Shown here: positions 9,849 through 24,352 of the stretch, in pieces
Layout of the letters: each line of letters opens with the position of its first letter
How positions within the stretch are numbered: position 1 is the first letter of the stretch
Assembly (NCBI GenBank): GCA_018712835.1
Contig: DVGF01000025.1
Location: 1 to 51,095, forward strand
Length of the DNA stretch: 51,095 bases
Origin: Candidatus Ventrenecus stercoripullorum
Lineage (GTDB): Bacteria; Bacillota_I; Bacilli_A; RF39; UBA660
Direction of reading: 5' to 3'
Notes under the pieces: generated by a model
What the model saw: the letters and a program-made list of their open reading frames with translations, nothing else
Database searches by the model: none
Told to the model about the DNA's origin: nothing
Made by a program: the position numbers and the translations under genes

Positions 9849-9941
9849 GGAAGAGTTTACACTTTTTAGGACTTTTACTTGACTTCAAAGGTAATAACCT
9901 TTAAAATAAATGTAGTAAAGGAAAAGAAATGAGGTTATATT

Positions 9942-10331
9942 ATGGGAACGGAAATTGGAACTGAAACAATGGGATTTTGTGCTAATACTGCGAATATTTG
10001 GCAAGTTGTTGGATATGTATTATTAGCTTTTAAAATAGTTATTCCAATTTTGTTAATTATATTTGGTATGTTAGATTTAGGAAAAGCTGTTATTGCTTCT
10101 AAAGATGACGAGATTAAAAAAGCAACAAAATCTTTAGCTATGCGTGCAGTTTCTGCAGTAGTTATTTTCTTTATTCCAACTATCGTTGGTTTAGTATTAG
10201 GATTAATTTCTAATTTCTCTGAATCTGGAGCACAAGATGATTGGAATACTTGTAGAGCTTGTATTACAAGTCCGAATAGTCCAGAATGTGATAATTATGC
10301 TGATGAAGCATGGAATGGAGGAGTTCAATAA
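9942..10331 (+). CDS. VirB2/TrbC-like pilin paralog 1 (minimal, no signal peptide)
   Basis: C...KIVIPILLIIFGMLDLGKAVIASKDDEIKKATKSL..R.VSAVVIFFIP two-helix hairpin, then CRAC...C. Confidence 0.7.
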   Translation: MGTEIGTETMGFCANTANIWQVVGYVLLAFKIVIPILLIIFGMLDLGKAVIASKDDEIKKATKSLAMRAVSAVVIFFIPTIVGLVLGLISNFSESGAQDDWNTCRACITSPNSPECDNYADEAWNGGVQ

Positions 10332-10410
10332 GAAATTATTGAACTTTTTTCTTGCTTTTTTTCTTTTTTTGACTAATAATATTTTTAGCAGTATAGAAAG
10401 GTGAAATTCA

Positions 10411-11022
10411 ATGATTCTAAAAAAAGAAATTTTTAGGGATGATTATATTTTGCGGATTTATAAAATTGTGAATAGAATTGATCATGAATTAGATCATTTA
10501 AGTTTAGAGGTAGCTCGTAAGTATCAACAATTAGGGGTATTGGGAGTTTTTAATTCGGAAGTGGCTTTGTTGGATTCTCAAGTAGAAACTGTTATGGGAA
10601 AACCTTTTTTAAAAAAAATGAAAAAACATCCTACTGTAAAACAGGCTTTTCGAGAATGCCATTTTAAGTTGGTGAAATTAACAAGAAACTGGAATTATTT
10701 TTTACAGAAAAAAGTTATGTATCAAGATGTAGAATATTTTGTTTATGATATGATATTTATGAATATTACAGAAGAAGAATTTAGAGAATATGTTTTGGGG
10801 AAAAAATCTGGACTTCGTAATGCTTTTATAGCTTGTCAAGAATTTTTAAAAGGGTTAAAGAATGATTTTCAAATGCCTATTTCTATAGAGAAAGAGTATT
10901 TTCGTGAACCGAGTATGAAAGAATGTTTGGAGCAGTGGAATTCGGAAGATGAAAATGAGGAAAACATTGATTTTGTTAATCCTCAGGAGACTCTTTCTTA
11001 TGAAAGGAAGAAAACTAGTTAA
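10411..11022 (+). CDS. Hypothetical soluble protein
   Basis: 203-aa ORF with SD gaaaggtga and terminator after it; no motif recognised. Confidence 0.6.
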   Translation: MILKKEIFRDDYILRIYKIVNRIDHELDHLSLEVARKYQQLGVLGVFNSEVALLDSQVETVMGKPFLKKMKKHPTVKQAFRECHFKLVKLTRNWNYFLQKKVMYQDVEYFVYDMIFMNITEEEFREYVLGKKSGLRNAFIACQEFLKGLKNDFQMPISIEKEYFREPSMKECLEQWNSEDENEENIDFVNPQETLSYERKKTS

Positions 11023-11082
11023 AATCTACTAGTTTTTTTGTGGTTTTATTGGTATACTTAAGAAGTAAAGTTTGGTGATACG

Positions 11083-12591
11083 ATGAAGAAGTTTTTAATA
11101 AGTATTTTTGTATTATTTGCTTTTTTTGGAATGATTGGTACTGTAGAGGCTAGGGAATTATCTAGAACTTGTCGTTATACAGATGGTAGCGAAAATAGTA
11201 TAGTGTATTTGTTTGTTTATTCTGATGGTGATTCGACTGCATATATTCGTAAAGATCGTGGTTCATTTAGAAATGAGAGCGATGGTCGCGGAGATCCTGA
11301 AACTGATGTTAATAATTGGGATTCATCAAAATATTCTAATAGTTGTCCAGAATATTTAGCATATAATGGACGTCTTGATTTTGGCTATTCAGTCCATGTT
11401 GGTGATACTGAAGAATCTTTAGATTATAGACCCGGTCCTATTTTAAGTTTGAGTAATTTCGACGGAATTGATGCTACATGTTCTTATGATGTGAATTTGA
11501 GTAATGGTTCTACTAATACTTTTACACTTACTGTTTATCGGGATGGTTTTGTTGTAGGAGATCCTTTAACGCTCGGTGAAGGTGGTGAAAATTTTGGGCC
11601 TATGGGAGGTATCAATTACCATTTGGGGGATGTTTATGAAGAAATGTATAATGATGCTGGTCAATTAAGACAGTGTCCTATTTTGTCTTTTTGCGAAGAA
11701 TCTTCTGCTAATGTTTATGAGGTAAAACCAGGAGGTACAATTTGTTCTAATGGAGAAACTGGCCAAAGATTAACTAGTCATGGTACTAATAATGTATCTG
11801 GTATCGAAGAAGAAGAAGATCAATCTCGCAATGTTTGTTCAGAACCACGTTATGCTTCCGATAATATATCAGGGCACCAATATATTATAGATTTTTATTT
11901 TAATCAAAATGGTGAAAAGTATTTTCGAGTATCAAGAAACGATAATACATCTCAAGGCGGAGATGCTCCATATAATGGTGATATTCTTGTTGACAATTTG
12001 CTTTTTAGAGTTGATCCTGATTATTATGATGTTTATTGGGAAGATTGTGATAGCACGGAAATTTATTTGCGTGCTCCAGAAGGTGTTTACGAAGTTCGTC
12101 AAATTACAGGAGTGAATGATGAAATGTATTCTACTGCTCCAGAAGACTCTAACGGATTTGAAACGGATAATACTGCGTCTATCGAAGAGCCAGATGAACC
12201 TTGGAATCCACATCAAGTTTGTCAAGGAGATAACTGTAATATTTCTATGGAAAAAATTTGTACAGATAGTAACGTATCTAATACATTGCATTCTATAGGG
12301 ATTCTTATTGTTATTATTAAAGTTTTAGTTCCAGCTGTTATTATTATTATTGGCATTAAAAATTTATTTATGATTATCACTTCTGGCAAAGAAGATGATG
12401 TTAAAAAATATGCAAAATCAATAGCTCTTCGTATTATTATAGGTGTAGGTATTTTCTTGCTTCCGAGTATCATTAATTTTATTTATGATGCAGCGCAAGA
12501 TGTTATTGGTGAAGGGCAAGCGAATGGCTTTGATAATTGCTGGAATTGTTTGTTTGATCTTGATCAATGTGATACTTCCGGAAATGATTGA
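11083..12591 (+). CDS. Pilin paralog 2: signal peptide, about 370-aa Cys-rich acidic extracellular region, C-terminal VirB2-like hairpin
   Basis: MKKFL...VEA signal; KVLVPAVIIIIGIKNLFMIITSGKEDDVKKYAKSIALRIIIGVGIFLLP; CWNC...C. Confidence 0.7.
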   Translation: MKKFLISIFVLFAFFGMIGTVEARELSRTCRYTDGSENSIVYLFVYSDGDSTAYIRKDRGSFRNESDGRGDPETDVNNWDSSKYSNSCPEYLAYNGRLDFGYSVHVGDTEESLDYRPGPILSLSNFDGIDATCSYDVNLSNGSTNTFTLTVYRDGFVVGDPLTLGEGGENFGPMGGINYHLGDVYEEMYNDAGQLRQCPILSFCEESSANVYEVKPGGTICSNGETGQRLTSHGTNNVSGIEEEEDQSRNVCSEPRYASDNISGHQYIIDFYFNQNGEKYFRVSRNDNTSQGGDAPYNGDILVDNLLFRVDPDYYDVYWEDCDSTEIYLRAPEGVYEVRQITGVNDEMYSTAPEDSNGFETDNTASIEEPDEPWNPHQVCQGDNCNISMEKICTDSNVSNTLHSIGILIVIIKVLVPAVIIIIGIKNLFMIITSGKEDDVKKYAKSIALRIIIGVGIFLLPSIINFIYDAAQDVIGEGQANGFDNCWNCLFDLDQCDTSGND

Positions 12592-12665
12592 TTGAGGTAT
12601 GAAAAAAAATAGTGTATAATATTTAGGTAGTTTGTGTTTACTACAGAAAGTAAAAGGGATGATTT

Positions 12666-13157
12666 ATGAAGAGAGTACTCGTGTTTTTATGTTTGTGTTT
12701 GTGTTTACCTACTTTAGTATATGCTGAAACGGATGATAGATATCCTGCTACTGAGGATCGTTATCCTAATAATGGGCTTACTCCAGAAGAAGAAGCACTA
12801 CGACAGGATTCTGTGTCTTCTGATGGTAACGAAAATGTTCCACAATCTGATTTATATACGCATTGTCCTATTTTTGTAGATGAAAGTGATGGCCAACCTA
12901 CGGAACTTTATAATATGTTGCAAGATCTCTTTAATTTGATTAAGATAGCGTCTCCTGCCTTAGTAATAGTTTTATCTACTATTGATTATCTTGGGGCTAT
13001 TGCAAAATCTAATGATGACGCGGTTAAGAAGGCAAATAGTAGGACTGTTAAACGTATTATTATTGGATTAGCCATCTTTTTCTTACCGTTTTTGTTGGAT
13101 ATAGTTTTTGAAATTTTTGGTTTAGTAGATGTTAGTCGATGTGGAATAGGGACATAA
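12666..13157 (+). CDS. Pilin paralog 3 with signal peptide
   Basis: LVYA signal; KIASPALVIVLSTIDYLGAIAKSNDDAVKKANSRTVKRIIIGLAIFFLP. Confidence 0.7.
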   Translation: MKRVLVFLCLCLCLPTLVYAETDDRYPATEDRYPNNGLTPEEEALRQDSVSSDGNENVPQSDLYTHCPIFVDESDGQPTELYNMLQDLFNLIKIASPALVIVLSTIDYLGAIAKSNDDAVKKANSRTVKRIIIGLAIFFLPFLLDIVFEIFGLVDVSRCGIGT

Positions 13158-13171
13158 GTGAGGTGTTTTAA

Positions 13172-15211
13172 ATGATAGCATTTTTTCCACTTACTGGAAA
13201 TTGGTGGCATAGTTTATTTCAAAAGATATTATTATTTTTGGACTCGGTAGTTTATTGGGCTGTTTCAATGTGTTATCAGTTATTTGTAAAGTTAGCTACT
13301 TTTAAATTATTTGACAATGATTTTTATAGTGAATTTGCAAATAGGATTTATGCTATTTTAGGCGTATTTATGTTATTTTATTTAGCATACGCATTACTAA
13401 ACGCTTTGATTGATCCTGAAAAATTAACTGGAGATAAAGGAGTTTCTAAACTTGCTTCAAATCTTGTTATATCTCTTATATTATTAGGTTTGATTCCAAC
13501 TATTTTTGATTATGCATATAGAATTCAGAATTATATATTATCATCTAATATTATTGGCGCTATTATTATGGATCAATCGACAACTGATCCTAATGTTGAT
13601 GATGATGCTGCCCATCAAGAGTCGATGATTACATTTGGAGATTCACTAGCTTTTACGGTTTTGAATACTTTTGTTAACCCTGATGGATATAATGTGAAAG
13701 CGGCTGATAATTATACGTGGTACGATTTTAAAATAGAGGTATTGGAGGAGAGTAATTATTCTAATCTTCCTGCCTTTTCAGATGCTACTGTTGGTGAACA
13801 GGTTGATCTTGAAACAAATCAAGATGTAATAGTTACTTACTACGGTTTTATATCTACTGCTACGGGTATTTTTTTGATATATATTATCCTATCATTTACC
13901 CTTGATTTAGGGGTTCGGGTTATTAAATTGGCTTTTTGTCAATTAATTGCTCCAATTCCTATTATCATGAGAGCAATGCCAAATAAAAAGAGTGTATTTG
14001 ATAAATGGGTGAAAACAACATTATCGGTTTTTTTCGAGGTATTTGTAAGAGTTGCTATAATGTATATTGCTGTGTATTTTATTAAGTCCATATGGGAATA
14101 TAACATATTTCAAGAATTTACTGGAATATTAGGAAAAGTTGCTCTAGTTGTTATAATTTTAGGAATTTTTTCATTTGTAAAACAAGCTCCAAAAATGATT
14201 AGTGATATGTTAGGCATTGAGTCTGGAAACTTGAAACTTGGAATTGGCGAAAAACTAAAAGCTGGGGGGTTCTTTGCAGGTGGTGCTATGTTGGGTGCTG
14301 GAGTTACTGGCTTAATACAGCGAGGTTTTAGTGGAATTTCGAATATTGGAAATAAATGGGGTGCTACGCATGGCTTATTGAATAAAGGAAAGTTAATAGC
14401 TGGAGGTCTTGTTGGAACTGCTGGTTCTATGATAGCTGGAAGTGCTTCAGGTATGTTTAATGCTTACCGAAATGGCGGAAAAGACGCGAAGGGTTTTGGT
14501 GATATGAAGAAAGCGGCTTCTGCTGGTGCACAAAAAAGTTTGCAAAACAAATTGGCTCGCGATCGTTATAAAGCAGTAAATAATGGTACGCTTGGTAGTG
14601 CTAAAGCTCATGGCATGGAGATGTTAAGTGGTATGAAAGAATGGGCTACCGGAACAGGGTTTACTAATAGTATTTTGTCTAAAATTAAATTTAGAGATGA
14701 TTTGAAAGAAACATATGATAATTCTTATAAGGAATTATTTGAAACACCAGAATATAAAAGATATGATGAATTATTAAAAGATTTGAAAGCTAAACAAGCA
14801 GCAGGAGTAACAGAAGTTAATGGGCAGAGTGTTGCTAGTCAGATAGCTATTCTTGATAATAAATTAAATCAAATGCGTACTGATACTATTCATAATAAAC
14901 GCGAAGCTGTTGCTTATGCTGCATATAACCTTGCTCAATTTGCTAAGGAAAATGCTAAAGCCGCTCGTGAGGCTGGATTTAATTTAAATGGTATCAATGT
15001 AGATGATTTGGTTCTTAAAGGAAATGACGTTTATAATAAATCTACTGGTGCGGTATTAAGTGAAGCTGAATTAAATCAAATTTTTGAGGCAACAAATGGT
15101 GTTAAAGCTCAAGTGAAGAGATTAAATGAAGAAAACAAGAGCTTGAAACAAAGTGTTGCATATAAAGAAGAACAGAAAAAACAAGCTGCATCAAAGAAGA
15201 ATCAAAGTTGA
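13172..15211 (+). CDS. Extended VirB6/TrbL-like polytopic membrane protein
   Basis: Multiple TM segments; RVIKLAFCQLIAPIPI...FDKWVK...KQAPKMISDMLG pattern; position between pilins and PrgI/VirB4. Confidence 0.7.
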   Translation: MIAFFPLTGNWWHSLFQKILLFLDSVVYWAVSMCYQLFVKLATFKLFDNDFYSEFANRIYAILGVFMLFYLAYALLNALIDPEKLTGDKGVSKLASNLVISLILLGLIPTIFDYAYRIQNYILSSNIIGAIIMDQSTTDPNVDDDAAHQESMITFGDSLAFTVLNTFVNPDGYNVKAADNYTWYDFKIEVLEESNYSNLPAFSDATVGEQVDLETNQDVIVTYYGFISTATGIFLIYIILSFTLDLGVRVIKLAFCQLIAPIPIIMRAMPNKKSVFDKWVKTTLSVFFEVFVRVAIMYIAVYFIKSIWEYNIFQEFTGILGKVALVVIILGIFSFVKQAPKMISDMLGIESGNLKLGIGEKLKAGGFFAGGAMLGAGVTGLIQRGFSGISNIGNKWGATHGLLNKGKLIAGGLVGTAGSMIAGSASGMFNAYRNGGKDAKGFGDMKKAASAGAQKSLQNKLARDRYKAVNNGTLGSAKAHGMEMLSGMKEWATGTGFTNSILSKIKFRDDLKETYDNSYKELFETPEYKRYDELLKDLKAKQAAGVTEVNGQSVASQIAILDNKLNQMRTDTIHNKREAVAYAAYNLAQFAKENAKAAREAGFNLNGINVDDLVLKGNDVYNKSTGAVLSEAELNQIFEATNGVKAQVKRLNEENKSLKQSVAYKEEQKKQAASKKNQS

Positions 15212-15228
15212 TAGAAAGGGGATAGAAT

Positions 15229-15537
15229 ATGGATCAATATTTAATACCGGCCAATACAAAGAAGTCAAAACTTATTTTAGGCTTCTTTACACCTGTTGAT
15301 TTAGCAATTTTTGGTGTTGGTTGTTTAATTACAATTATTATGTTATTTGTGTTTCAAGGTATGACTTTTCAACAAGCTTTGTTGGTATTACTTCCGGCAA
15401 TGGTTTCTGGATTTCTAGTGATGCCTGTTCCTAATTATCATAATGTATTGCAATTAATTACGAATATTATAACGTTTTTGTTTAATAGAAGAAGGTATTA
15501 TTGGAAAGGCTGGTGTATTAGAGATGGCGAAAAATAA
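15229..15537 (+). CDS. PrgI/VirB3-like small membrane protein
   Basis: YLIPAN...LILGFFT..DL, two TM helices, RRYYW terminus; upstream of VirB4. Confidence 0.75.
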   Translation: MDQYLIPANTKKSKLILGFFTPVDLAIFGVGCLITIIMLFVFQGMTFQQALLVLLPAMVSGFLVMPVPNYHNVLQLITNIITFLFNRRRYYWKGWCIRDGEK

Positions 15538-16090
15538 AGAAGATGTTGCTAGTAAGTGGAGTGAAGATTGGGTACCTATTAAAAATATTATGAATGGTAT
15601 GATTCAGTTAGAATCTGGAGAATATGTCACAGGGATTAAGATAGCTCCTCGTAATATTTTTATTTTGGATTCTGGAACTCGGGATAATGTAATATATCAA
15701 CTTCAAAATTTTTATAATTCGATTAATTTTGAATTTTGGTTAGTTGTTGCTGATCGTCCGGTAGATATTAACGTGTATCTTTCGCAGCTTCAAATACTAT
15801 ATAATCGTGCTACAAATGCCAATACTCGTAAGTTAATTCAACAAGATATTAATAAAGCAAATATGTTTATGAGTGCTGAATATAACGTCGTTGATACAGA
15901 ATATTATATTTTATTTAAAGAAAGAAAGATGGATGTTATTCAAAAGAGATTACATTCTATGATTAGTAATTTAGCTAATTGTGGGTTAAATAGTCAACAA
16001 ACTAGTAATAATGACTTGCGTGTTATTTTGGATAATTTCTTTAATGGTGGTGCTGCTACAACATTTAGTGGAATGGTAGGTGTTGGTTAA
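15524..16090 (+). CDS. VirB4-accessory protein (TrsD-like / VirB4 N-terminal-like)
   Basis: Overlaps both neighbours (TAATG coupling with the ATPase); PIKNIMNGMIQLESG...NFYNSINF...RPVDINVYL. Confidence 0.6.
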   Translation: MAKNKEDVASKWSEDWVPIKNIMNGMIQLESGEYVTGIKIAPRNIFILDSGTRDNVIYQLQNFYNSINFEFWLVVADRPVDINVYLSQLQILYNRATNANTRKLIQQDINKANMFMSAEYNVVDTEYYILFKERKMDVIQKRLHSMISNLANCGLNSQQTSNNDLRVILDNFFNGGAATTFSGMVGVG

Positions 16091-17874
16091 TGAATATTAA
16101 AGCACAGATTGCTCCTAAAGGAGTGGAATTTAAAGCTACTGAATTTATGATGAGTGGTAAGTATTGTACTGTTCTTACAATTGTTAGTTATCCAAAGTAT
16201 ATTCAACAAGGATATCTTGCCAATTTGACAAATCTTTCAGGAATTAAGATTGTTGCGAAACACATTCCGATTGAACTTTCTACTTTGCAACGAATGATTA
16301 ATAAAGAAATTGCAGATTTAAAGCAACGTTATCAAACGGAACATGATAAAACTATTCAAGAAAGAATTCGTCAAGATTATGAATCTTTGGAACAATTTAT
16401 TTCGCAATTGGTTGCAACTCAAGCTAGAATTTATGATTTTCAATTACATGTTTTAGTATCTGCAGATACAAAAGATGAAATGGAAAATAAAAAGATGCAA
16501 GTAAGAAATTATTTGGATGCTTTAGGAATGCGTGGAATCTCTTTGATGTTTGAACAAGAGAAAGTAATTAAATCGATGATTCCTATTTTCCCTAAACAAG
16601 ATGTAGAAGATCGTGTGGGAACACCAATCCCATCCCCGACGATCGCGGCAATGTATCCATTTATTTTTGATAGTATTAAAGACCCTGGAAACAGTACTTT
16701 ATTTGGAGTAGATTTCTCAGGTGGAGTTATTTTATTTAATCAGTTTTTGTATCAAATTAAGAAAGAAAATAATCGTAATAATGCTAATATTATTATTCTT
16801 GGTGCTTCTGGTTCTGGTAAATCTACTGCGGCTAAGTTATTAATTCGTAGTCATTTGCGTAATGAATATAAAGTTGTTTGTATCGACCCTGAAGGTGAGC
16901 TTGAAGAAATGGCTCGGAGTATGGGTGGTGACTTCTTAGACCTTGGTAAGGGTGGAGACTTCGGTATGGTTAATCCTCTTGAAATTGTTTTAGATGCGGA
17001 TCAAGAGGAAATTAATCAAGGACTTGGTTATACAGTACTTACTAAGACTTTACAACAATTACAAGCTTTTATGAAATATTATAGTCCTGATATCGAAGAA
17101 GATGTTCTTACGATGTTTACGGAAGTTGTTCAGGATACCTATAAACGTTATAAAATTGATTTTGATACTGATTTTACGCAGTTTACTAGCCAAGATTATC
17201 CGACATTTGATGATGTGTACGCTACAATTAAGGGACGTCTCCTTTCCATGACTGAAAAAACTCATGAACGTGATATTATGGAAAGACTAGAACTTAAAAT
17301 TCGTCCTTTAACAAAAGAGCTTCGTTATTTCTTTACAGGACATACGACTTTAAATATTCAAAGTGATTTTATTGTCTTTAATATTCGAGAGTTAATGACT
17401 TCTGCTGAAAATATTAAAAATGCTTTGTTCTTTAATATTTTGAAGTATGCATGGGGTTTATGTTTGGATAGTTCTGTTAATACTGTTATGTATGTGGATG
17501 AAGCTCATACGTTGTTATCTAGTCGAAATGAGTTGGGTGCTGAGTTTTTAGCAAATATTCAAAGACGTAGTCGTAAGTATAATACAGGAACCATTATTAT
17601 TACTCAACAACCAACAGACTTTGCTGCTCCTAATATTTTAATTCATGGAAAAGCAATTTTCGACAATGCTTCTTATTACTTAGTTATGGGACTTAAGAAA
17701 CAGGCAGTGGATGATTTGTCTCAACTTATTGATTTAAATGAAAGTGAAAAAGACAGTATTAAATATTATAATCAAGGAGAAGGTTTGTTTGTTTGTGGAA
17801 ACAGACGAATGAGAATTAATATTATTGTTACTCAAGAAGAATTGGATTCTTTTGGATCTGGAGGAGGATTATAG
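16090..17874 (+). CDS. virB4: VirB4-family T4SS ATPase
   Basis: NANIIILGASGSGKS Walker A, IDPEGE, MYVDEAH Walker B, RSRKYN, ITQ, GEGLF. Confidence 0.9.
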   Translation: MNIKAQIAPKGVEFKATEFMMSGKYCTVLTIVSYPKYIQQGYLANLTNLSGIKIVAKHIPIELSTLQRMINKEIADLKQRYQTEHDKTIQERIRQDYESLEQFISQLVATQARIYDFQLHVLVSADTKDEMENKKMQVRNYLDALGMRGISLMFEQEKVIKSMIPIFPKQDVEDRVGTPIPSPTIAAMYPFIFDSIKDPGNSTLFGVDFSGGVILFNQFLYQIKKENNRNNANIIILGASGSGKSTAAKLLIRSHLRNEYKVVCIDPEGELEEMARSMGGDFLDLGKGGDFGMVNPLEIVLDADQEEINQGLGYTVLTKTLQQLQAFMKYYSPDIEEDVLTMFTEVVQDTYKRYKIDFDTDFTQFTSQDYPTFDDVYATIKGRLLSMTEKTHERDIMERLELKIRPLTKELRYFFTGHTTLNIQSDFIVFNIRELMTSAENIKNALFFNILKYAWGLCLDSSVNTVMYVDEAHTLLSSRNELGAEFLANIQRRSRKYNTGTIIITQQPTDFAAPNILIHGKAIFDNASYYLVMGLKKQAVDDLSQLIDLNESEKDSIKYYNQGEGLFVCGNRRMRINIIVTQEELDSFGSGGGL

Positions 17875-17886
17875 TCCTTCTTTTTT
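17860..17886 (+). terminator. Intrinsic terminator closing the T4SS operon
   Basis: gaggaggatt-ata-gtccttc followed by a T run. Confidence 0.65.
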
Positions 17887-18037
17887 GATTTTTGTGGCTA
17901 TGTAATTGTTTTAAATATTATTTTGTGATACAATGTAACTAGAAAGAACTTGTTCTTTCTAACTCAAAAAAGTATAATATGGATGTTTTATTCATATTAT
18001 ACTGGTAGGACACAAAAAAGAACTATCTGACTTTCAC

Positions 18038-18066
18038 TTGTTAGATGCTTCTCAGTCCTATATAAT
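18038..18066 (+). promoter_or_regulatory. Putative promoter of an antisense RNA to the peptide gene
   Basis: TTGTTA-17 bp-TATAAT with no plus-strand ORF immediately downstream. Confidence 0.5.
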
Positions 18067-18116
18067 GGTTGTGAGAAAGCACCTATTCAGAGATGAGTAG
18101 GTGTTTTCGCTATTGT

Positions 18117-18188
18117 TTAATCCTTTTTGGAAGGATAAATTTTTGATAGTACTATTAAAAGTATTATCAAGACTATTAAATAGACCAT
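18117..18188 (-). CDS. Putative type I toxin peptide MVYLIVLIILLIVLSKIYPSKKD (23 aa)
   Basis: Hand-translated; hydrophobic helix plus basic tail; GAAAGGA upstream; lies inside a transcript whose ends are complementary. Confidence 0.55.
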   Translation of the reverse strand: MVYLIVLIILLIVLSKIYPSKKD

Positions 18189-18407
18189 TTATAATTCCTT
18201 TCATAAGGACCACCTCCTTCTAAAAATTAAATATATCTTTTTAGAACCGAGGGAAAAACACCTAACAATCAGATAGTTCTATTTCATTATATAATAATAA
18301 ACTTCTTTTTTCTATAAATTTTATGTGATTTTATGAATTAAAGAATTTTTACAATCTTTCTTGTTTTAAAAATATATTATGATGATGTTAAACGGAAGGT
18401 GATACTT

Positions 18408-18877
18408 TTGAAAAGTAAATACTATATATCAAAAGAGGATAATATTTTTTTGCCAAAAGAAAATTAGTTGATAATATTTATAAGAGTACTGTTTTGGAAG
18501 GCATCCGTGTTACTATAGAGGATGTTTATGCTTTTATGCAAAATGTAAATACTGGAACTATTTAGCACCCAAAGATGCCAAGCGAATGTGATTATGATTC
18601 AGAGTTAAAGAGTATTTTATCAATATCTAATTCTTTAGAGAGATGTATTACTTTGTTTTGCTTTATTCAACGGAGTCAAATGTTTTTAGATGGAAATAAG
18701 CGTGTGGCTAACTTGGTAGCCAATAAAGAGATGATCCGAAATGGTGAAGGTATTTTATCCGTACCAGTAGAAAAAATAGGAGAATATTTTACGTATCTTA
18801 TTCATTACTATGAAACAGGTGATATGACTGAGATTAAAAACTTTCTTTATCAAAATTGTATTGATGGAGTAGAGTGA
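18408..18877 (+). pseudogene. Fic/Doc family pseudogene
   Basis: TTG start gives KSKYYISKEDNIF; frameshift in a T run; AKRKLVDNIYKSTVLEGI then a stop; apparent internal deletion; QMFLDGNKR Fic-type motif in 18575..18877. Confidence 0.8.
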
Positions 18878-18948
18878 TTTTCATAGCCTTATTAGGGCTT
18901 TTTTTCTTGTGTTCCACTCACTCTTAGCATATAATACTAGTAAGGACG

Positions 18949-20244
18949 GTGAAGTATATGAGTCTTGTAACCCTTTTGCCTGCAGATAAGTATGTTGTTG
19001 TAAATAAAACGATTTTAACAGAGCAGGATCGAAAGTATTTAGTAAGTCTTTATGAACCAATCATTGGGTCGCTTGCCGTTAGTTTATATCTTACTTTATG
19101 GAGAGATTTGGATCGATATAATCTAGTTAGTGTTGATTATACGCATCATCATTTGATGACAATTTTGAAAAGTAATTTGGACAATATTAAGCTTGCTCGT
19201 AAAACACTCGAGGCAGTAGGGCTTGTGAAAACGTATTATGAAGCAGGAGAACCTAACAATTATGTTTATGAACTTTATTCGCCAATGACACCGAAAGAGT
19301 TTTTTGCGAATCCTATATTTAATATTGTTTTATATAATAATATAGGAAGTACAGAGTACGAAATGTTAAAACAAGAATTTAGTCCTCTTCATTTCTCATT
19401 AAAAGGATACGTTGATATTACAACCCCATTTGATAAGGTTTTTAAATCTAGTAGTGAGGCGGTTGAAACGTTTGATGCTGTAGGGCGAGAAGAAGGGACA
19501 ATTGCTATGCAAGATCAAGTTGATTTTGATTTACTTGTTTCTAGTTTGCCGAAAGGGCTTGTGACAGAAAAAACGTTTACTAAGAGGATGAAGAGTCTTA
19601 TTAATAATTTAGCGTTGGTCTATAATTTAGATACTTTAAAAATGTGTGAGATTATCAGACTTTCTTTGAATGAAAAAGGGTGTATTGATAAAGAATTTTT
19701 ACGAATTCAAACTAGAAAATATTATCAATATAATCATCATGGAAAATTACCAACTTTGGTGTATCGTACGCAGCCTGAATATTTAAAAAGTCCTTCTGGG
19801 GATACTAGTAAAAAAGGACGAATTATTGAAGTATTTGAAAATACATCACCATATGATTTTTTAAAATCAAAGTATCAAAATGGTAATCCAACACAGAGAG
19901 ATTTAAAACTTTTGGAGTATCTTTTAGTCGATGTGGAACTTAAGCCTGCTGTTGTAAATGTATTAATTGATTATGTCTTAAAGAAAAATAATAATAAATT
20001 AAATACTGCTTTTGTGGAGACGATTGCCGGACAGTGGAAACGGCTTAATATACAGACTGCAAAAGATGCGATGGAAGTAGCTGAAAAGGAACATAAGAAA
20101 TATACGAATCGTTTACAAAAAGAAACAAATAAAAGGGTTAGTAATGAAACACCAGTTTGGTTTGATGAAAAGATTAGTAAAGAAACTTTAAGTGAAGAAG
20201 AAGAAACAGAACTTGAGGATATGTTAAAGAAGTATAAGGATTAG
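18949..20244 (+). CDS. dnaB: Replication initiation/membrane attachment protein DnaB (Bacillota type)
   Basis: LYEPIIGSLAVSLY, LEAVGL, VVNVLIDY, IAGQW motifs; upstream of dnaI. Confidence 0.92.
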   Translation: MKYMSLVTLLPADKYVVVNKTILTEQDRKYLVSLYEPIIGSLAVSLYLTLWRDLDRYNLVSVDYTHHHLMTILKSNLDNIKLARKTLEAVGLVKTYYEAGEPNNYVYELYSPMTPKEFFANPIFNIVLYNNIGSTEYEMLKQEFSPLHFSLKGYVDITTPFDKVFKSSSEAVETFDAVGREEGTIAMQDQVDFDLLVSSLPKGLVTEKTFTKRMKSLINNLALVYNLDTLKMCEIIRLSLNEKGCIDKEFLRIQTRKYYQYNHHGKLPTLVYRTQPEYLKSPSGDTSKKGRIIEVFENTSPYDFLKSKYQNGNPTQRDLKLLEYLLVDVELKPAVVNVLIDYVLKKNNNKLNTAFVETIAGQWKRLNIQTAKDAMEVAEKEHKKYTNRLQKETNKRVSNETPVWFDEKISKETLSEEEETELEDMLKKYKD

Positions 20245-20250
20245 GGTAGT

Positions 20251-20967
20251 ATGGACATTAAAGAGATTAAAACTTTCGAAGATATGGAACGTTATATATT
20301 AGAAAGAAACAGAGTTATTGATTGTTTTGATTCTTTAGTATTGCAATCATTGATGCAAAATATGAAAGAAAATCAATTGGTGTTGATTTTTAAAAAAGAT
20401 TATTTTTACAATGTAACGATTGAAAAAATTTCAGATTGGTATAGACCTTATATAGAGCATCAGTATTCTAAAAGTTTACCAATTATGCAAGGCTTTATTA
20501 GTGAATGTAATGAAGTATGGTTTCGTATCCCAAAAGCGATAGAAAATCCTTGGAATGCTGGTGAGCGAATGAGTGAGTTATCTCGTGATAATTATTATGT
20601 TGATGATAATATCATATGGTATCAAGAGTGGCTGAATATTCGCGATTCAAGAATGAAAAATAAAGTTTCCATTTTATATGAAGATGATAGTATTTTAATT
20701 TTTGTGATTTTTGTTAAAGTAGATAAGATAAAATTCAATAATGAAACACAGGGTCTTGAATTTAATCATCCTATTTATGGAGTAAATCCGAAATTACAAT
20801 GGCAAATCTATTTAACAGATCATTATTATCATCATTATAAAGTGAAAGGGTATGATGAGTTTTTGCATGAACAAGGCCAGGAATATATCAAAGAAAGGTT
20901 AGAAAAAAACAAAGAAATATTAGAATTTTATCGAAAAGAGTTTACATTAGAACGGAAAAGATGGTGA
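20251..20967 (+). CDS. Hypothetical protein between dnaB and dnaI
   Basis: 238-aa ORF tightly spaced between both genes; no motif recognised. Confidence 0.65.
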   Translation: MDIKEIKTFEDMERYILERNRVIDCFDSLVLQSLMQNMKENQLVLIFKKDYFYNVTIEKISDWYRPYIEHQYSKSLPIMQGFISECNEVWFRIPKAIENPWNAGERMSELSRDNYYVDDNIIWYQEWLNIRDSRMKNKVSILYEDDSILIFVIFVKVDKIKFNNETQGLEFNHPIYGVNPKLQWQIYLTDHYYHHYKVKGYDEFLHEQGQEYIKERLEKNKEILEFYRKEFTLERKRW

Positions 20968-20975
20968 TTTAGGAT

Positions 20976-21857
20976 ATGGAAATAACGTTTACAAAAAGAA
21001 ATCAAGAAGAGCTAGAAAAGAATTTTATGGATGCAATGAAAAATCCTAAGTTTCAAAATTTAGTGAAACGTTTAGGGTGGAGTAAAGAAGAAGTATTATC
21101 ACGGACTACAAAGTTACAAGATACTTTAGATGAACTTCAAAATTGTGCAAATTGTAAAGGATTATATATGTGTAAAAATCTTTATGCTGGACATGTCTCT
21201 ATGCCAAAGAAGGAAGAGGGACGAATTTATTTTACTTATGCTCCTTGTAAATATAAAAAACGAGAAGTGGAACAAAAGAAAGCTCATTTAAGTGAACAAG
21301 ATATTTGTAAAATGGCTCGAATGAAAGATATTGATGTGAAAGATAAAAAACGGATGCAAGTGATTAAATGGTTAGATCAGTTTTTTGAAGAGTATGATTT
21401 TTCTAAAAATATGAAGGGACTTTATTTGCATGGTAATTTTGGTTGTGGAAAGACTTTTTTAGTAAGTGCGTTACTTCATGAATTAGAGGAAAAAAAGAAT
21501 GTGGGTGTAGAGCTTGTTTATTTTCCAGAAATTTTAAGGGAATTAAAGAGTGATTGGGAAATGTATGAACATTCAATGAAACGTTATTGTACAGTTGATA
21601 TTTTATGTATTGATGATATTGGTGCGGAAAAGGTGAGTGAGTGGAGTCGTGATGAGGTTTTAGGAACTATTTTACAAACACGAATGAATCATAATTTAAC
21701 AACGTTTTTTACTTCTAATTTGACTAAGCAAGAATTAGAAAATCATTTTATTATGAATGATAGGGCTGATGAAAGAATTAAAGCCAGACGAATTATGGAA
21801 CGAATTAATCAACTTACCGAGGATATGGAACTTTTAAGTGAAAATAGAAGAAAGTAA
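20976..21857 (+). CDS. dnaI: Primosomal helicase loader DnaI
   Basis: CxxC Zn motif, KGLYLHGNFGCGKT, IDDIGAE, TFFTSN, RIMERI. Confidence 0.95.
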   Translation: MEITFTKRNQEELEKNFMDAMKNPKFQNLVKRLGWSKEEVLSRTTKLQDTLDELQNCANCKGLYMCKNLYAGHVSMPKKEEGRIYFTYAPCKYKKREVEQKKAHLSEQDICKMARMKDIDVKDKKRMQVIKWLDQFFEEYDFSKNMKGLYLHGNFGCGKTFLVSALLHELEEKKNVGVELVYFPEILRELKSDWEMYEHSMKRYCTVDILCIDDIGAEKVSEWSRDEVLGTILQTRMNHNLTTFFTSNLTKQELENHFIMNDRADERIKARRIMERINQLTEDMELLSENRRK

Positions 21858-21947
21858 GCTTGGTTTTGGGTTTTCATCACTAGTGTAAAATACACTAGTT
21901 TTTTTGTTTGTTTATTGATATAATTGACATGTAAGTTTGGTGATACT

Positions 21948-22472
21948 ATGAAAAAAGTTTTTATTATATTTTTATCTTTCTTATTTCTTGGGGGATTAAT
22001 AGAAAGTGTTTCTGCTAAAACGATTGATTATCCAGAACAAGTTATTTCACCAGTTTCTATGGGTTCTTCTTTCCATCTTTTGGATGGAGAAGCTAATGAT
22101 ATTACTGTAAATGATATTTGTTCTATGCCATCGTATCGGAAACCAATGTTATTTTTAGGAAAAATATTAAATTTTGTTAAAATTATTGTGCCAATTGTGA
22201 TTATTGTTTTTGGAGTGCTTGATTTTTATAAAGCAATTACTTCTAGTAAAGATGAAGGGCTTAGCAAAGCTTTTAAATCACTTATTATTCGGGCGATAGC
22301 TGGTGTTTGTATCTTTTTGTTACCAGGAATTGTTCAACTTGTTTTAAATATGGTCAATGAGTGGAGTGATTATTCTAATAATTGGTGTTGTTGTACAGAA
22401 TGCTTGTTAAATGGTGATTGTGATGTTAATTCTTGTAGTAGTGATTCTTGTCGTATAGAAGGGATGGATTAA
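21948..22472 (+). CDS. Pilin paralog 4 with signal peptide and Cys-rich tail
   Basis: VSA signal; KIIVPIVIIVFGVLDFYKAITSSKDEGLSKAFKSLIIRAIAGVCIFLLP; WCCCTECLLNGDCDVNSCSSDSC. Confidence 0.7.
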   Translation: MKKVFIIFLSFLFLGGLIESVSAKTIDYPEQVISPVSMGSSFHLLDGEANDITVNDICSMPSYRKPMLFLGKILNFVKIIVPIVIIVFGVLDFYKAITSSKDEGLSKAFKSLIIRAIAGVCIFLLPGIVQLVLNMVNEWSDYSNNWCCCTECLLNGDCDVNSCSSDSCRIEGMD

Positions 22473-22474
22473 TT

Positions 22475-23284
22475 ATGAAGTTTAAATATTGGTTGATTGC
22501 GTTACTTGCTTTTGTTGCATGGGTTCCTAATGCTTTTGCTGTAGCATATTATTATCGCGTAGATAATGGAAATTATTTACTTTGTGATGGTACAAAATGT
22601 GATGAAGTAGAGCCGGGTCAGCAAGGCGTAACGTTCAATTTGGCAGCTGGCCAGATTACTTATAATGGTATTGTTTTTCAGTATGATTCTGTACAGCAAG
22701 AAAATTATAATAATTCCATGATAGGGCAAACAAGAATGTTTTATTATGTAGATGATAATGGTCGTTATGTATTGTGTACTCAAGTTGGTAGTTGTGAACG
22801 TTATACTTTTGATGGGTTATCTAGTCAGGGTGCAGTTATTACGACTGGAAGTACAGTTACCATGGTAGATGGCACGACTTATTACTATAATTCTATTCAA
22901 TCTGGGAATAGTTCTAACGAAGAATCTTCTAATAACAATAGTAATGCTTCTGATATTGATGTAGAGGATTCTGCAACATGTGGAAGATTAAAAGAGCCGT
23001 TGATGTTTATTGGAAATATAGTGTTAGTTGTGAAAATTGCGATTCCAATTATTATTATTGCTCTTGGAATGATGGATTTCTTTAAAGCTATTACAGGTTC
23101 TAAAGATGAAGAAATTAGGAAAGCTGCTAAATCTTTTGTTTTACGAGTAGCGGCTGGTGCTATTATTTTCTTTATTCCAACGGTCATTAGTGTTGTATTC
23201 TCATTAATTTCTTCTTGGGTAGATTTAAAAGGAGAATTTAATGCTTGTCAAAAGTGTATTTTAAATGTTAGGAGTTGTGAGTAA
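22475..23284 (+). CDS. Pilin paralog 5 with signal peptide and two Tyr/Cys repeats
   Basis: AFA signal; KIAIPIIIIALGMMDFFKAITGSKDEEIRKAAKSFVLRVAAGAIIFFIP; CQKC...C. Confidence 0.7.
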   Translation: MKFKYWLIALLAFVAWVPNAFAVAYYYRVDNGNYLLCDGTKCDEVEPGQQGVTFNLAAGQITYNGIVFQYDSVQQENYNNSMIGQTRMFYYVDDNGRYVLCTQVGSCERYTFDGLSSQGAVITTGSTVTMVDGTTYYYNSIQSGNSSNEESSNNNSNASDIDVEDSATCGRLKEPLMFIGNIVLVVKIAIPIIIIALGMMDFFKAITGSKDEEIRKAAKSFVLRVAAGAIIFFIPTVISVVFSLISSWVDLKGEFNACQKCILNVRSCE

Positions 23285-23598
23285 TGGATTATTGTTCTGG
23301 ACTTAGTAGTACTTTTATCTTTATAGGACATATTGTTCGAATTGCTAAAATTTTTATTCCAATTATTATTATTGGTATGGGAATGATGGATTTATTTAAG
23401 GCCATTGTTGGGTCAAAGGAAGATACGCTTGGAAAGGCAGTAAAGTCTTTAGTATTTCGGGCGATTGCTGGGGTATGTATTTTCTTTTTGCCAGCCCTTA
23501 TCAGTCTGATATTTAGTTGGGTTGATACTTGGAACGAGGATGAGTTCTGGGGATGCTTTAATTGTATTTGGGATGTCGGTAGTTGTATTGATGAATAA
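23284..23598 (+). CDS. Pilin paralog 6 (minimal)
   Basis: TAATG coupled; KIFIPIIIIGMGMMDLFKAIVGSKEDTLGKAVKSLVFRAIAGVCIFFLP; CFNC...C. Confidence 0.7.
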   Translation: MDYCSGLSSTFIFIGHIVRIAKIFIPIIIIGMGMMDLFKAIVGSKEDTLGKAVKSLVFRAIAGVCIFFLPALISLIFSWVDTWNEDEFWGCFNCIWDVGSCIDE

Positions 23599-23693
23599 AT
23601 ACTAGGAAAATTTCTTAGTATTTTTTTTACCCGCTTTCTTGTAATAAGGATTACTTTTTGATACAATATCATTGTACAAAAGTAGGTGATGTT

Positions 23694-23933
23694 ATGGATA
23701 ATACGACCTTATTTGATGTGCAACTATTAGCTAAAGCAAACGTAAAGATGATTTTAAAGGAAGTATATCAATTATTAGAAGAAAGAGGATATCAACCAAT
23801 TAATCAAATTGTTGGTTATTTGATGAGTGGGGATCCCGGGTACATTTCTTCTTATAAAGGTGCGAGAGAAAAGATTATGTCTATTGATCGAGCTATGTTG
23901 TTAGCTTATATTTTACAGGAATATTTAAAATGA
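23694..23933 (+). CDS. ireB: IreB/ReoM family (UPF0297) regulatory phosphoprotein
   Basis: EERGYQPINQIVGYLMSGDPGYI. Confidence 0.93.
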   Translation: MDNTTLFDVQLLAKANVKMILKEVYQLLEERGYQPINQIVGYLMSGDPGYISSYKGAREKIMSIDRAMLLAYILQEYLK

Positions 23934-24352
23934 GGTATTTAGGACTTGATTTAGGGACTAAAACGTTGGGAGTGGCTGTTAGTGATGTTTCTAATACATT
24001 TGCACTTCCTTTAAAGACTCTCCATTTTCCAGTAAATGAATATGATAAAGTATTAGGAGAGTTAGAGAATATTGTACAAGAAAAGCATATTACAGCTTTT
24101 GTTTTAGGACTTCCTAAAAATATGGATAATTCTTGTGGTTTTGCAGCAGAAAGAAGTACTTCTTTTGCGGAAATTTTGAAAGAAAAATTTCATATGCCAG
24201 TGTATTTTGTTGATGAGAGATTAACAACGAAAGAAGCAGAACGCATTTTACTGGCTAGTGATAAGTCTCGAAAAAAAAGAAAAAAGGTCATTGATAATGT
24301 TGCTTCCGCATTAATATTAGAAACATTTTTAAAAGAAAGGATGGAAAAATGA
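23930..24352 (+). CDS. ruvX: YqgF/RuvX family nuclease
   Basis: LGLDLGTKTLGVAVSD, GLPKNMD, DERLTT. Confidence 0.95.
   Translation: MRYLGLDLGTKTLGVAVSDVSNTFALPLKTLHFPVNEYDKVLGELENIVQEKHITAFVLGLPKNMDNSCGFAAERSTSFAEILKEKFHMPVYFVDERLTTKEAERILLASDKSRKKRKKVIDNVASALILETFLKERMEK

Follow-up and report, generated by a model that had tools for sequence, protein, structure and literature searches.

The pilin genes of the window

The stretch of DNA analysed here (the window) is contig DVGF01000025.1 of Candidatus Ventrenecus stercoripullorum, positions 1-51,095 of the forward strand, from an assembly (GCA_018712835.1) of 1.38 Mb in 65 contigs that is 82% complete. Between positions 9942 and 23598 it carries six open reading frames (ORFs) that have their C-terminal ~100 amino acids (aa) in common, and the same interval holds genes for VirB6-, VirB3- and VirB4-like proteins of a type IV secretion system (T4SS). 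A preliminary description of this DNA had proposed that the six are VirB2-like pilins flanked by cysteines and loaded with interchangeable N-terminal cargo. We hypothesize, with a probability that we put at roughly 0.55, that they represent six classes of the T4SS_pilin (VirB2-like) family, from which a chromosomal T4SS builds a stapled, heteropolymeric surface fibre.

All six ORFs lie where that description placed them, on the forward (+) strand, and their domains align: they are 20-38% identical to the domain of the gene at 9942, and the K, R, I, F and P of the shared C-terminal motif are invariant. They are named here by the classes set out below, with the flanking cysteines given as the number in the 28 residues before helix 1 plus the number anywhere C-terminal of the FFLP motif. 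The class A protein (9942..10331; 129 aa; cysteines 1+3) and the class E protein (23284..23598; 104 aa; 1+3) are bare pilins that have no leader and begin a few residues ahead of helix 1; class E, bare in this genome, is 91% identical to a database protein of Candidatus Ventrenecus avicola. The other four, as earlier described, combine a Sec signal peptide, read straight from the translations (K-rich, hydrophobic, A-x-A-type), with extensions of about 35, 45, 145 and 365 aa. Class B (11083..12591; 502 aa; 3+3) has a Cys-rich extension of ~365 aa, class F (12666..13157; 163 aa; 1+1) a short one, and class C (21948..22472; 174 aa; 1+7) one of ~35 aa, while class D (22475..23284; 269 aa; 1+3) consists of a two-repeat, beta-rich extension, an S/N-rich linker and then the pilin domain. 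Alternative TTG starts at 21924 and 22448 would lengthen class C to 182 aa and class D to 278 aa. Classes B, E and F were recognised by domain alignment, class E also by its structural model.

A hidden Markov model (HMM) made from the six domains was run against the 9825 stop-to-stop ORFs of at least 40 aa in the genome. The six score between E 5e-50 and 4e-32 and the next best match has E 0.37, so that exactly six copies exist in this 82% complete assembly, all of them in the window.

Family and predicted fold

The class A protein scores 29.3 bits against PF18895 (T4SS_pilin), above the gathering score of 26.6 bits, and class C, read from the TTG at 21924, reaches 23.0 bits, below it. A further 191 members were gathered from 80 related loci, and 138 non-redundant domains of the family were combined in one alignment (A3). 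Among the 138, PF18895 is matched by 70 (E <= 0.01) and T4SS_CagC by 4, and the NCBIfam matches include the Mbov_0395 pilin-like family (18), MMCAP2_0566 (27) and the Mbov_0396 transmembrane (TM) family (31); TrbC (PF04956) is absent among the 25 families listed, of 33 matched. Against Mbov_0395 (NF045849) itself the best window protein, class C, scores 16.7 bits, below the curated cut-off of 40. A search of protein clusters (50% identity) with the A3 profile returned 10,797 representatives at E <= 0.001, of which 8,411 reach E <= 1e-10; in nearly all of the best 150 matches the pilin domain is C-terminal, in proteins of 104-564 aa. These family matches and the large database spread indicate that we are dealing with a large, divergent branch of T4SS_pilin, kin to the pilin-like proteins of Mycoplasma integrative and conjugative elements (ICEs). 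The profile similarity to T4SS pilins that the preliminary description had called for was found. As a lead only, one neighbouring cluster in the Atlas has PF18895 in 97% of its members, and another has PF18895 in 59% and TrbC in 33%.

The AlphaFold2 (AF2) model of the 104-aa class E protein, computed with A3, has helices at residues 3-42, 46-80 and 86-96 and a predicted local distance difference test score (pLDDT) of 84.6. An exhaustive structural comparison places the R388 pilin (8s6h_A) at rank 41, its whole chain of 69 residues being aligned with Z 6.1 and a root-mean-square deviation of 2.6. The modelled hairpin is therefore consistent with VirB2 and not diagnostic of it: of the VirB2-like structure that had been proposed, the helical hairpin is reproduced in the monomer, but its match to VirB2 is a generic one. 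A four-copy complex prediction of the same protein with A3, run without controls, scored 0.00 and gives no verdict.

The secretion genes

Four genes on the same strand follow class F. The first encodes a VirB6-like polytopic membrane protein of 679 aa (13172..15211; Mbov_0396 at 29.2 bits, below cut-off), and the second a VirB3/PrgI-like small membrane protein of 102 aa (15229..15537) that has weak PrgI and TcpE matches and maps to positions 2-96 of the 894-position VirB4_plasma family. Next come a separate VirB4 N-domain protein of 188 aa (15524..16090; VirB4_plasma 96-276, E 1.5e-15), which by its position and this match is probably TrsD-like, and the VirB4 ATPase of 594 aa (16090..17874; VirB4_plasma 338.6 bits over 294-891, CD1110 family 183.8 bits). 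The split of VirB3, N-domain and VirB4 into three ORFs is kept in every relative inspected, the N-domain always forming an ORF of its own. The pilin genes are thus encoded beside VirB4, VirB6 and VirB3, which is the T4SS context proper to PF18895. Elsewhere in the assembly, contig C49 encodes two proteins that we assign to the same system, a wall hydrolase of 681 aa with Peptidase_M23 and Phage_lysozyme2 domains and a coupling protein (T4CP) of the VirD4 type with 743 aa, and beside them a protein of 306 aa that matches no family; the T4CP occurs in 24 of 24 genomes of the genus at 74-93% identity.

The pilin HMM, once iterated, also matches 67 ORFs outside the pilin set, over residues ~30-145. 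By length and position almost all of these are VirB6-like, and the matches of this type among the 40 lowest scores listed have 19-43 bits. When A3 was compared with 45 VirB6 N-termini by hhalign, the probability was 49.7% (E 1.7e-4) over 42 columns that take in the loop and helix 2 with an LPTIF-type motif. The VirB6 N-terminus (13172-13681 in the window) may accordingly carry a pilin-like hairpin of its own, perhaps a template at the base of a pilus.

Three related loci whose VirB4 is 80-81% identical (L054, L055 and L062; L marks related loci, G related genomes, and G000 the source genome) have virB3, the N-domain gene and virB4 without upstream VirB6 or pilin genes. Upstream of them in L054 and L055 lie what appear from the translations to be the cell wall and division genes murG, murB and ftsQ, and the upstream genes of L062 differ. 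These layouts mean that the system can be split over the chromosome.

Classes and gene order

When each of the 191 relatives is assigned to its nearest window protein, six classes emerge, each with its own cysteine signature. Class A is bare, with a median of 127 aa and cysteines 1+3, and is found at 34 loci (at least 45% domain identity). Class B proteins have 377-544 aa and cysteines 3+3, class C 78-428 aa and 1+7, class D a median of 277 aa and 1+3, class E 104-301 aa and 1+3, and class F 147-623 aa and 1+1 (in 21 of 24). Among the loci listed, class A comes first in the array wherever it is present, and class F is the gene that adjoins virB6 in the relatives. The order A-B-C-D-E-F is complete in L030 and L036, and L041 and L049 have the same order with B doubled. 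The array stands directly upstream of virB6, which is followed by the genes for VirB3, the VirB4 N-domain and VirB4; all six window genes and the 191 further pilin ORFs lie on the VirB4 strand, and all but two of the pilin ORFs listed from related loci sit upstream of VirB6-VirB3-VirB4. The six were initially called paralogues, and mutually homologous they are by the HMM, but to judge from the alignments they are anciently diverged, orthologous classes in a conserved order and not simple paralogues or recent duplicates.

In the window the C-D-E block (21924-23598) has moved out of the array to a place behind dnaB-orf238-dnaI (17875-21923). The displaced block is also present in L029 and G023, and the other genus members keep their pilin genes contiguous. 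Contigs from RNA libraries span both new junctions (21682-22292 and 23470-23938), so the displacement is a real rearrangement. These contigs, from four libraries of one chicken-gut study, cover pilin and T4SS genes, one (record 9) covering 9924-10288 and another (record 16) 22305-23500 with zero differences; runs X3 and X4 leave some bins of the sequence uncovered. Because DNA can occur in RNA libraries and contigs cannot rank genes, we take this as a weak hint of transcription only.

Two ORFs within the interval may be mentioned beside the array. A 203-aa ORF between the class A and class B genes (10411..11022, + strand) may not belong to the system: it has no Pfam or NCBIfam match, no TM segment was seen in it, and the pilin arrays of G006 and G020 contain no match to it, while its region aligns to L029 at the DNA level. 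The 238-aa ORF between dnaB and dnaI (20251-20967) matches no family and shows no DNA similarity to the otherwise collinear L029.

N-terminal extensions

The window was compared with L029. VirB4 is 99% identical between the two loci, which are collinear and 78-94% identical in DNA outside replaced stretches, and collinearity is broken over the extensions of class B (11151-12199) and class C (21955-22106) and over orf238. The class B protein has 502 aa in the window and 377 in L029, and the class C protein 182 and 404; in both classes the pilin domains are 78-85% identical and the signal peptides recognisably similar, with unrelated sequence between them. The class B extension of the window resembles those of L049, L041 and L034 and that of L029 resembles L051, so that alleles are distributed against genome relatedness.

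Across the sample, 117 pairs of similar extensions belong to the same class and 9 to different classes (126 in total), and 34 of 114 extensions have no similar partner. Shuffling between classes can be set aside, since only those 9 of 126 pairs cross and all of them involve ambiguous class calls. The idea of interchangeable cargo is consequently retained in a narrower form: wholesale replacement has taken place in classes B and C, but the N-termini of class A (bare) and class D are conserved, and exchange is mostly within a class.

Class D illustrates the conserved kind. Its 13 orthologs are 43-75% identical over the full length, and the extension is made of two YYY..D.G.Y.LC...C repeats with four invariant cysteines, followed by the S/N-rich linker. 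In the AF2 model the extension (25-140) is beta-rich with pLDDT 61-90 in 10-residue blocks, the linker is disordered and the remainder is a hairpin; 55 residues, outside the extension, have pLDDT below 50. Foldseek found nothing in the PDB at E <= 0.001 for this model, so the beta-rich extension has no recognised fold. For the class B extension there is no family and no usable Atlas match, and its model is poor (predicted template modelling score, pTM, 0.32). Cysteines are denser in the extensions than in the long ORFs of the genome (2.7 against 1.18 per 100 aa), and their number is even in 79 of 116 extensions, whose boundaries are approximate.

Flanking cysteines

Every window pilin has a cysteine within the 28 aa ahead of helix 1, class B having three. 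After helix 2, five of the six have CxxC and a later cysteine, three cysteines in four proteins and seven in class C, and class F has a single C-terminal one, all as first described. Among 197 proteins the N-side has exactly one cysteine in 169, the C-side number is odd in 191, and the total is even in 190, counts that overstate their independence because the sequences are mutually related and not independent trials. The signatures are 1+3 in 93 proteins, 1+1 in 62, 3+3 in 13, 1+7 in 11 and 1+5 in 2, so the parity holds across pilin classes that differ in cysteine number. In a separate database set, of which 221 of 233 returned proteins could be evaluated, the total is even in 205 and the C-side number odd in 217. 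The simplest reading of this parity is a disulfide between the N-flank and the C-terminal tail that staples the termini together, and the counts support this part of the earlier proposal at the level of sequence.

A proposed stapled surface fibre

RP4 TrbC and Ti VirB2 are two-helix hairpins with both ends outside that are cyclised head to tail by a dedicated peptidase. We propose that each of the proteins described here would insert in the membrane as a similar two-helix hairpin, its K-rich loop cytoplasmic and both ends outside. The single cysteine ahead of helix 1 would pair with a cysteine of the C-terminal tail, stapling the termini and doing by oxidation what cyclisation does in TrbC and VirB2, and the remaining tail cysteines would pair among themselves. 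VirB4 and VirB6 would extract the subunits and assemble them into a heteropolymeric surface fibre. Its bulk would come from the leaderless class A protein, the likely major subunit, and the extended classes would decorate it or act as specialised subunits; their Cys-rich beta domains would contact other cells, and some extensions would diversify through allelic replacement. Contact with other cells is the purpose that we infer for the machine, and the conserved T4CP is compatible with either DNA or protein as the transferred substrate.

Several observations weigh against this hypothesis. At E <= 0.01, PF18895 matches just two of the six window proteins and TrbC (PF04956) none. The hairpin fold is generic, since 376 chains reach Z >= 5 and unrelated helical hairpins score higher than the R388 pilin (Z 6-6.8). 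Foldseek with the 104-aa model returned nothing at E <= 0.001, and the A3 profile searched against PDB sequences gave chance membrane matches only (E >= 0.15), with no solved relative. The RNA-library contigs may derive from contaminating DNA. If every subunit of a VirB2-type lattice bore an extension, lengths of up to ~500 aa would be difficult to accommodate. No VKOR, DsbA-like Thioredoxin_4 or DsbB was found in the 82% complete assembly, and with an anoxic habitat this leaves the route of oxidation unexplained. Lastly, the filament itself, along with pilus formation and the adhesin function, is so far something that we infer.

That last point speaks for the explanation which competes best with a fibre, a possible but distinctly less probable one in our judgement: that the hairpins are anchors which stay in the cytoplasmic membrane and tether an N-terminal surface domain, the bare copies being accessory membrane parts of the translocon. 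Most members do carry sizeable N-terminal domains (the 221 database proteins have a median of 205 aa, and 92 of them have at least 250 aa), and the seemingly hairpin-like VirB6 N-terminus, with its hhalign probability of 49.7% and the 31 of 138 pilin domains that match Mbov_0396, would fit a module that stays in the membrane. However, tethering does not explain why the most widely conserved class is a leaderless protein of ~127 aa with no cargo at all (34 loci). In addition, the domain matches pilin profiles, a strict staple of the outside ends would be expected of a subunit that leaves the membrane, and six classes in a fixed order resemble sets of major and minor subunits.

The staple has a competitor of its own, which we consider improbable, namely that the flanking cysteines bind metal, for instance in a Cys4 zinc site formed by the N-flank cysteine and the CxxC...C tail; the two ends would be clamped in that case as well. 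The commonest signature, 1+3, does offer four cysteines with a CxxC (93 of 197 proteins), and the failure to find Dsb or VKOR machinery in the 82% complete assembly and the anoxic gut also speak for such a site. Yet the classes 1+1 (62 of 197), 3+3 (13) and 1+5 (2) add up to two or six cysteines, with which no Cys4 site is possible and the total is nevertheless even; totals of two and six fit disulfides and do not fit Cys4 metal sites. The sites would also be extracellular by the proposed topology, and Cys4 zinc sites are uncommon outside the cell.

Distribution and inheritance

The system belongs to a lineage, which corresponds to the GTDB order RF39. All 24 genus genomes have an ortholog of the window VirB4 (86-99% identity). 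In the sample of the order, a cut-off of E <= 1e-100 gives orthologs in 192 of 201 genomes; for the high-quality genomes the count is 191 of 200, with 93 of 98 genera of the family, and a second family of the order yielded none (0 of 1). In a sample of the class, orthologs occur in 26 of 27 genomes of the family itself, in 1 of 1 and 1 of 3 genomes of two further families (f7 and f14) and in 0 of 218 from 26 other families of Bacilli. Relatives of this VirB4 are found in at least 540 species-representative loci, which by their titles stem from uncultured Bacilli or Tenericutes of the human or animal gut. The pilin profile has matches in all 24 genus genomes (1-12 in each), in three others (G025, G030 and G037) and in none of the 13 remaining class genomes; in four of these 13 the only VirB4 genes are of the ICE type (24-30% identity). 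G025 has a pilin match and no match to the window VirB4 as query. The preliminary description would have fallen had the family been common in genomes that lack this VirB4; instead, the pilin profile tracks this VirB4 lineage.

Within the genus the machine is unevenly conserved. The N-domain protein (88-91% identical) and VirB4 exceed the housekeeping ORFs of the same loci (36-84%), the VirB3-like protein is 73-81% identical, and the fast-evolving parts are VirB6 (44-48%) and the pilins (40-65%). A strongly constrained ATPase core with fast-evolving exposed parts fits a domesticated, conjugation-type machine of monoderms with VirB2-like subunits.

It is very unlikely that the cluster is instead part of an ICE, intact or decayed, in which the pilin-like genes would be ordinary cargo of the kind seen in Mycoplasma ICEs. 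For this view, Mycoplasma ICE families give the best NCBIfam matches (VirB4_plasma with 338.6 bits, Mbov_0396, Mbov_0395), the cluster flanks differ between species and a conjugative plasmid of Bacillus thuringiensis shares the order TrbL-PrgI-(210 aa)-VirB4-hydrolase. Against it, 191 of the order's 200 high-quality genomes have the VirB4 ortholog, mostly as a single copy, it is better conserved than its housekeeping neighbours, no relaxase or integrase adjoins the cluster in the window (Pfam and NCBIfam scans found no relaxase family there, nor PF03432 or PF02486 in the genome), a typical ICE-type VirB4 (~820 aa, 24-27% identity) is present additionally in some genus genomes, and no plasmid VirB4 exceeds 27.8% identity. 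An ICE origin is rejected on these grounds. The system is chromosomal and core to the family, it is not a mobile element, and the evidence fits vertical inheritance.

The plasmid VirB4 at 27.8% identity is the best of its kind and comes from the B. thuringiensis plasmid just named, in which a relaxase and a T4CP stand beside the shared gene order. A 126-aa 'conjugal transfer protein' upstream of TrbL on that plasmid was considered as a pilin and rejected (hhalign probability against A3 0.6%, no Pfam match).

The same system was seen in two genomes of other families, with VirB4 identities of 69% (G037, contig C76, locus L022) and 60% (G030, contig C10, locus L023). A T4CP gene lies close downstream of virB4 in both, about 2 kb downstream in G030; in G037 homologues of the hydrolase and the T4CP follow virB4 directly, the hydrolase homologue in between. 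Only one of the three genomes of the family to which G037 belongs has the system. These occurrences could reflect either transfer between lineages or an ancestral, contiguous layout.

Comparison with known systems and significance

The closest analogue is the T4SS of Patescibacteria, described for Southlakia epibionticum ML1 and Nanosynbacter lyticus TM7x, which like ours is chromosomal, lineage-wide and found in small genomes. According to the accessible parts of two papers, it comprises VirB4, TrsD, PrgI/VirB3, VirB6 and arrays of 2-11 VirB2-like genes recognised through PF18895, together with a peptidase and a lysozyme, the T4CP is often encoded elsewhere and there is no adjoining relaxase; S. 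epibionticum ML1 has six pilin genes and its T4SS is essential (PMC12102498, PMC10633639). As here, the pilin copies of Patescibacteria are divergent in sequence and similar in structure (PMC12102498, PMC10633639, PMC12857230). The gene set of that type (VirB4, separate N-domain, VirB3/PrgI, VirB6 and pilin array, lineage-wide and without adjoining relaxase) is present here in full. Unlike in those systems, the host is a member of the Bacillota (class Bacilli), the T4CP is as conserved as VirB4, and those parts of the papers do not speak of a cysteine staple, of six classes in fixed order or of large extensions that are swapped; essentiality is reported there for Southlakia alone.

The Mycoplasma ICE module (NF045849, NF045889 and NF045975, that is, Mbov_0395, Mbov_0396 and Mbov_0397) has the same order of a small pilin-like gene, a TM protein and VirB4, and its families top the NCBIfam matches of VirB4, of the VirB6-like protein and of part of the pilin domains (18 of 138). 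Our proteins score below the curated cut-offs (338.6 against 590 bits for VirB4_plasma, 16.7 against 40 for Mbov_0395). VirB3, N-domain and VirB4 form one 894-position protein there and three ORFs here, and the module resides on an ICE there, whereas here it is core and chromosomal, in a lineage that appears to have kept murG and murB (L054 and L055, from the translations).

With the cyclised P-type pilins the resemblance is that of a hairpin whose ends are joined, here by a putative disulfide; N-terminal cargo such as ours would be incompatible with cyclisation, and PF04956 is unmatched. Tandem arrays of divergent VirB2 paralogues are also known from the T4SSs of Bartonella and Anaplasma, where they are thought to vary the exposed surface (as cited in the accessible text of PMC12102498). 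Those bacteria are diderm animal pathogens with short pilins, whereas here there are six classes with distinct cysteine patterns and long extensions.

A 2025 review, in its accessible text, describes VirB2 pilins as absent from Gram-positive T4SSs with Patescibacteria as the sole exception, and calls the patescibacterial systems unique among monoderms in their potential for conjugative pili (PMC12857230). Our literature search, which did not extend to supplementary gene tables, found no published T4SS or pilin system in RF39-like Bacilli, and in one paper on these orders the strings 'secretion', 'conjugat' and 'pili' do not occur. A Bacillota lineage of ~100 genera keeps a T4SS with a richer pilin set in its core genome, and the purpose of a chromosomal monoderm T4SS pilus could then be studied in a second, independent lineage. 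Two of its proposed features are open to testing: a cysteine staple instead of cyclisation, and displayed domains that vary between strains. Partner or host specificity in these abundant, uncultured gut bacteria is likely to depend on both.

A bolder generalisation, which we regard as unlikely in its entirety, is that this whole family of uncultured, small-genome (0.7-1.6 Mb) gut Bacilli has a core, pilus-forming T4SS made up like the one that Patescibacteria require to grow as epibionts, with six disulfide-stapled pilin classes whose exposed domains strains exchange with one another. If it were true, these Bacillota would depend on physical contact with partner cells, and T4SS pili of monoderms, instead of being peculiar to Patescibacteria, would recur among genome-reduced bacteria as a device that is possibly homologous.

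Other genes of the region and genome

A role of the machine in DNA uptake, in place of a missing competence pilus, was set aside: the genome encodes ComEC and three T2SSE-type ATPases, so that no such substitute is required of the machine. On other contigs the source genome has two Mob_Pre (MOBV-type) relaxase genes (G000:C16:14947-15612 and C27:3090-3614), which may belong to small mobilisable elements able to use the chromosomal T4SS. In the window a fragment-like 100-aa ORF (18575-18877) has a weak Fic match, and a full protein of 310 aa with RhuM and Fic domains is encoded at G000:C49:31619-32548, near the T4CP gene. On the same contig (G000:C49:18459-23626), two long proteins of the sigma-70 family (480 and 653 aa) and a homologue of the sporulation protein YunB are encoded just upstream of the hydrolase-T4CP module.

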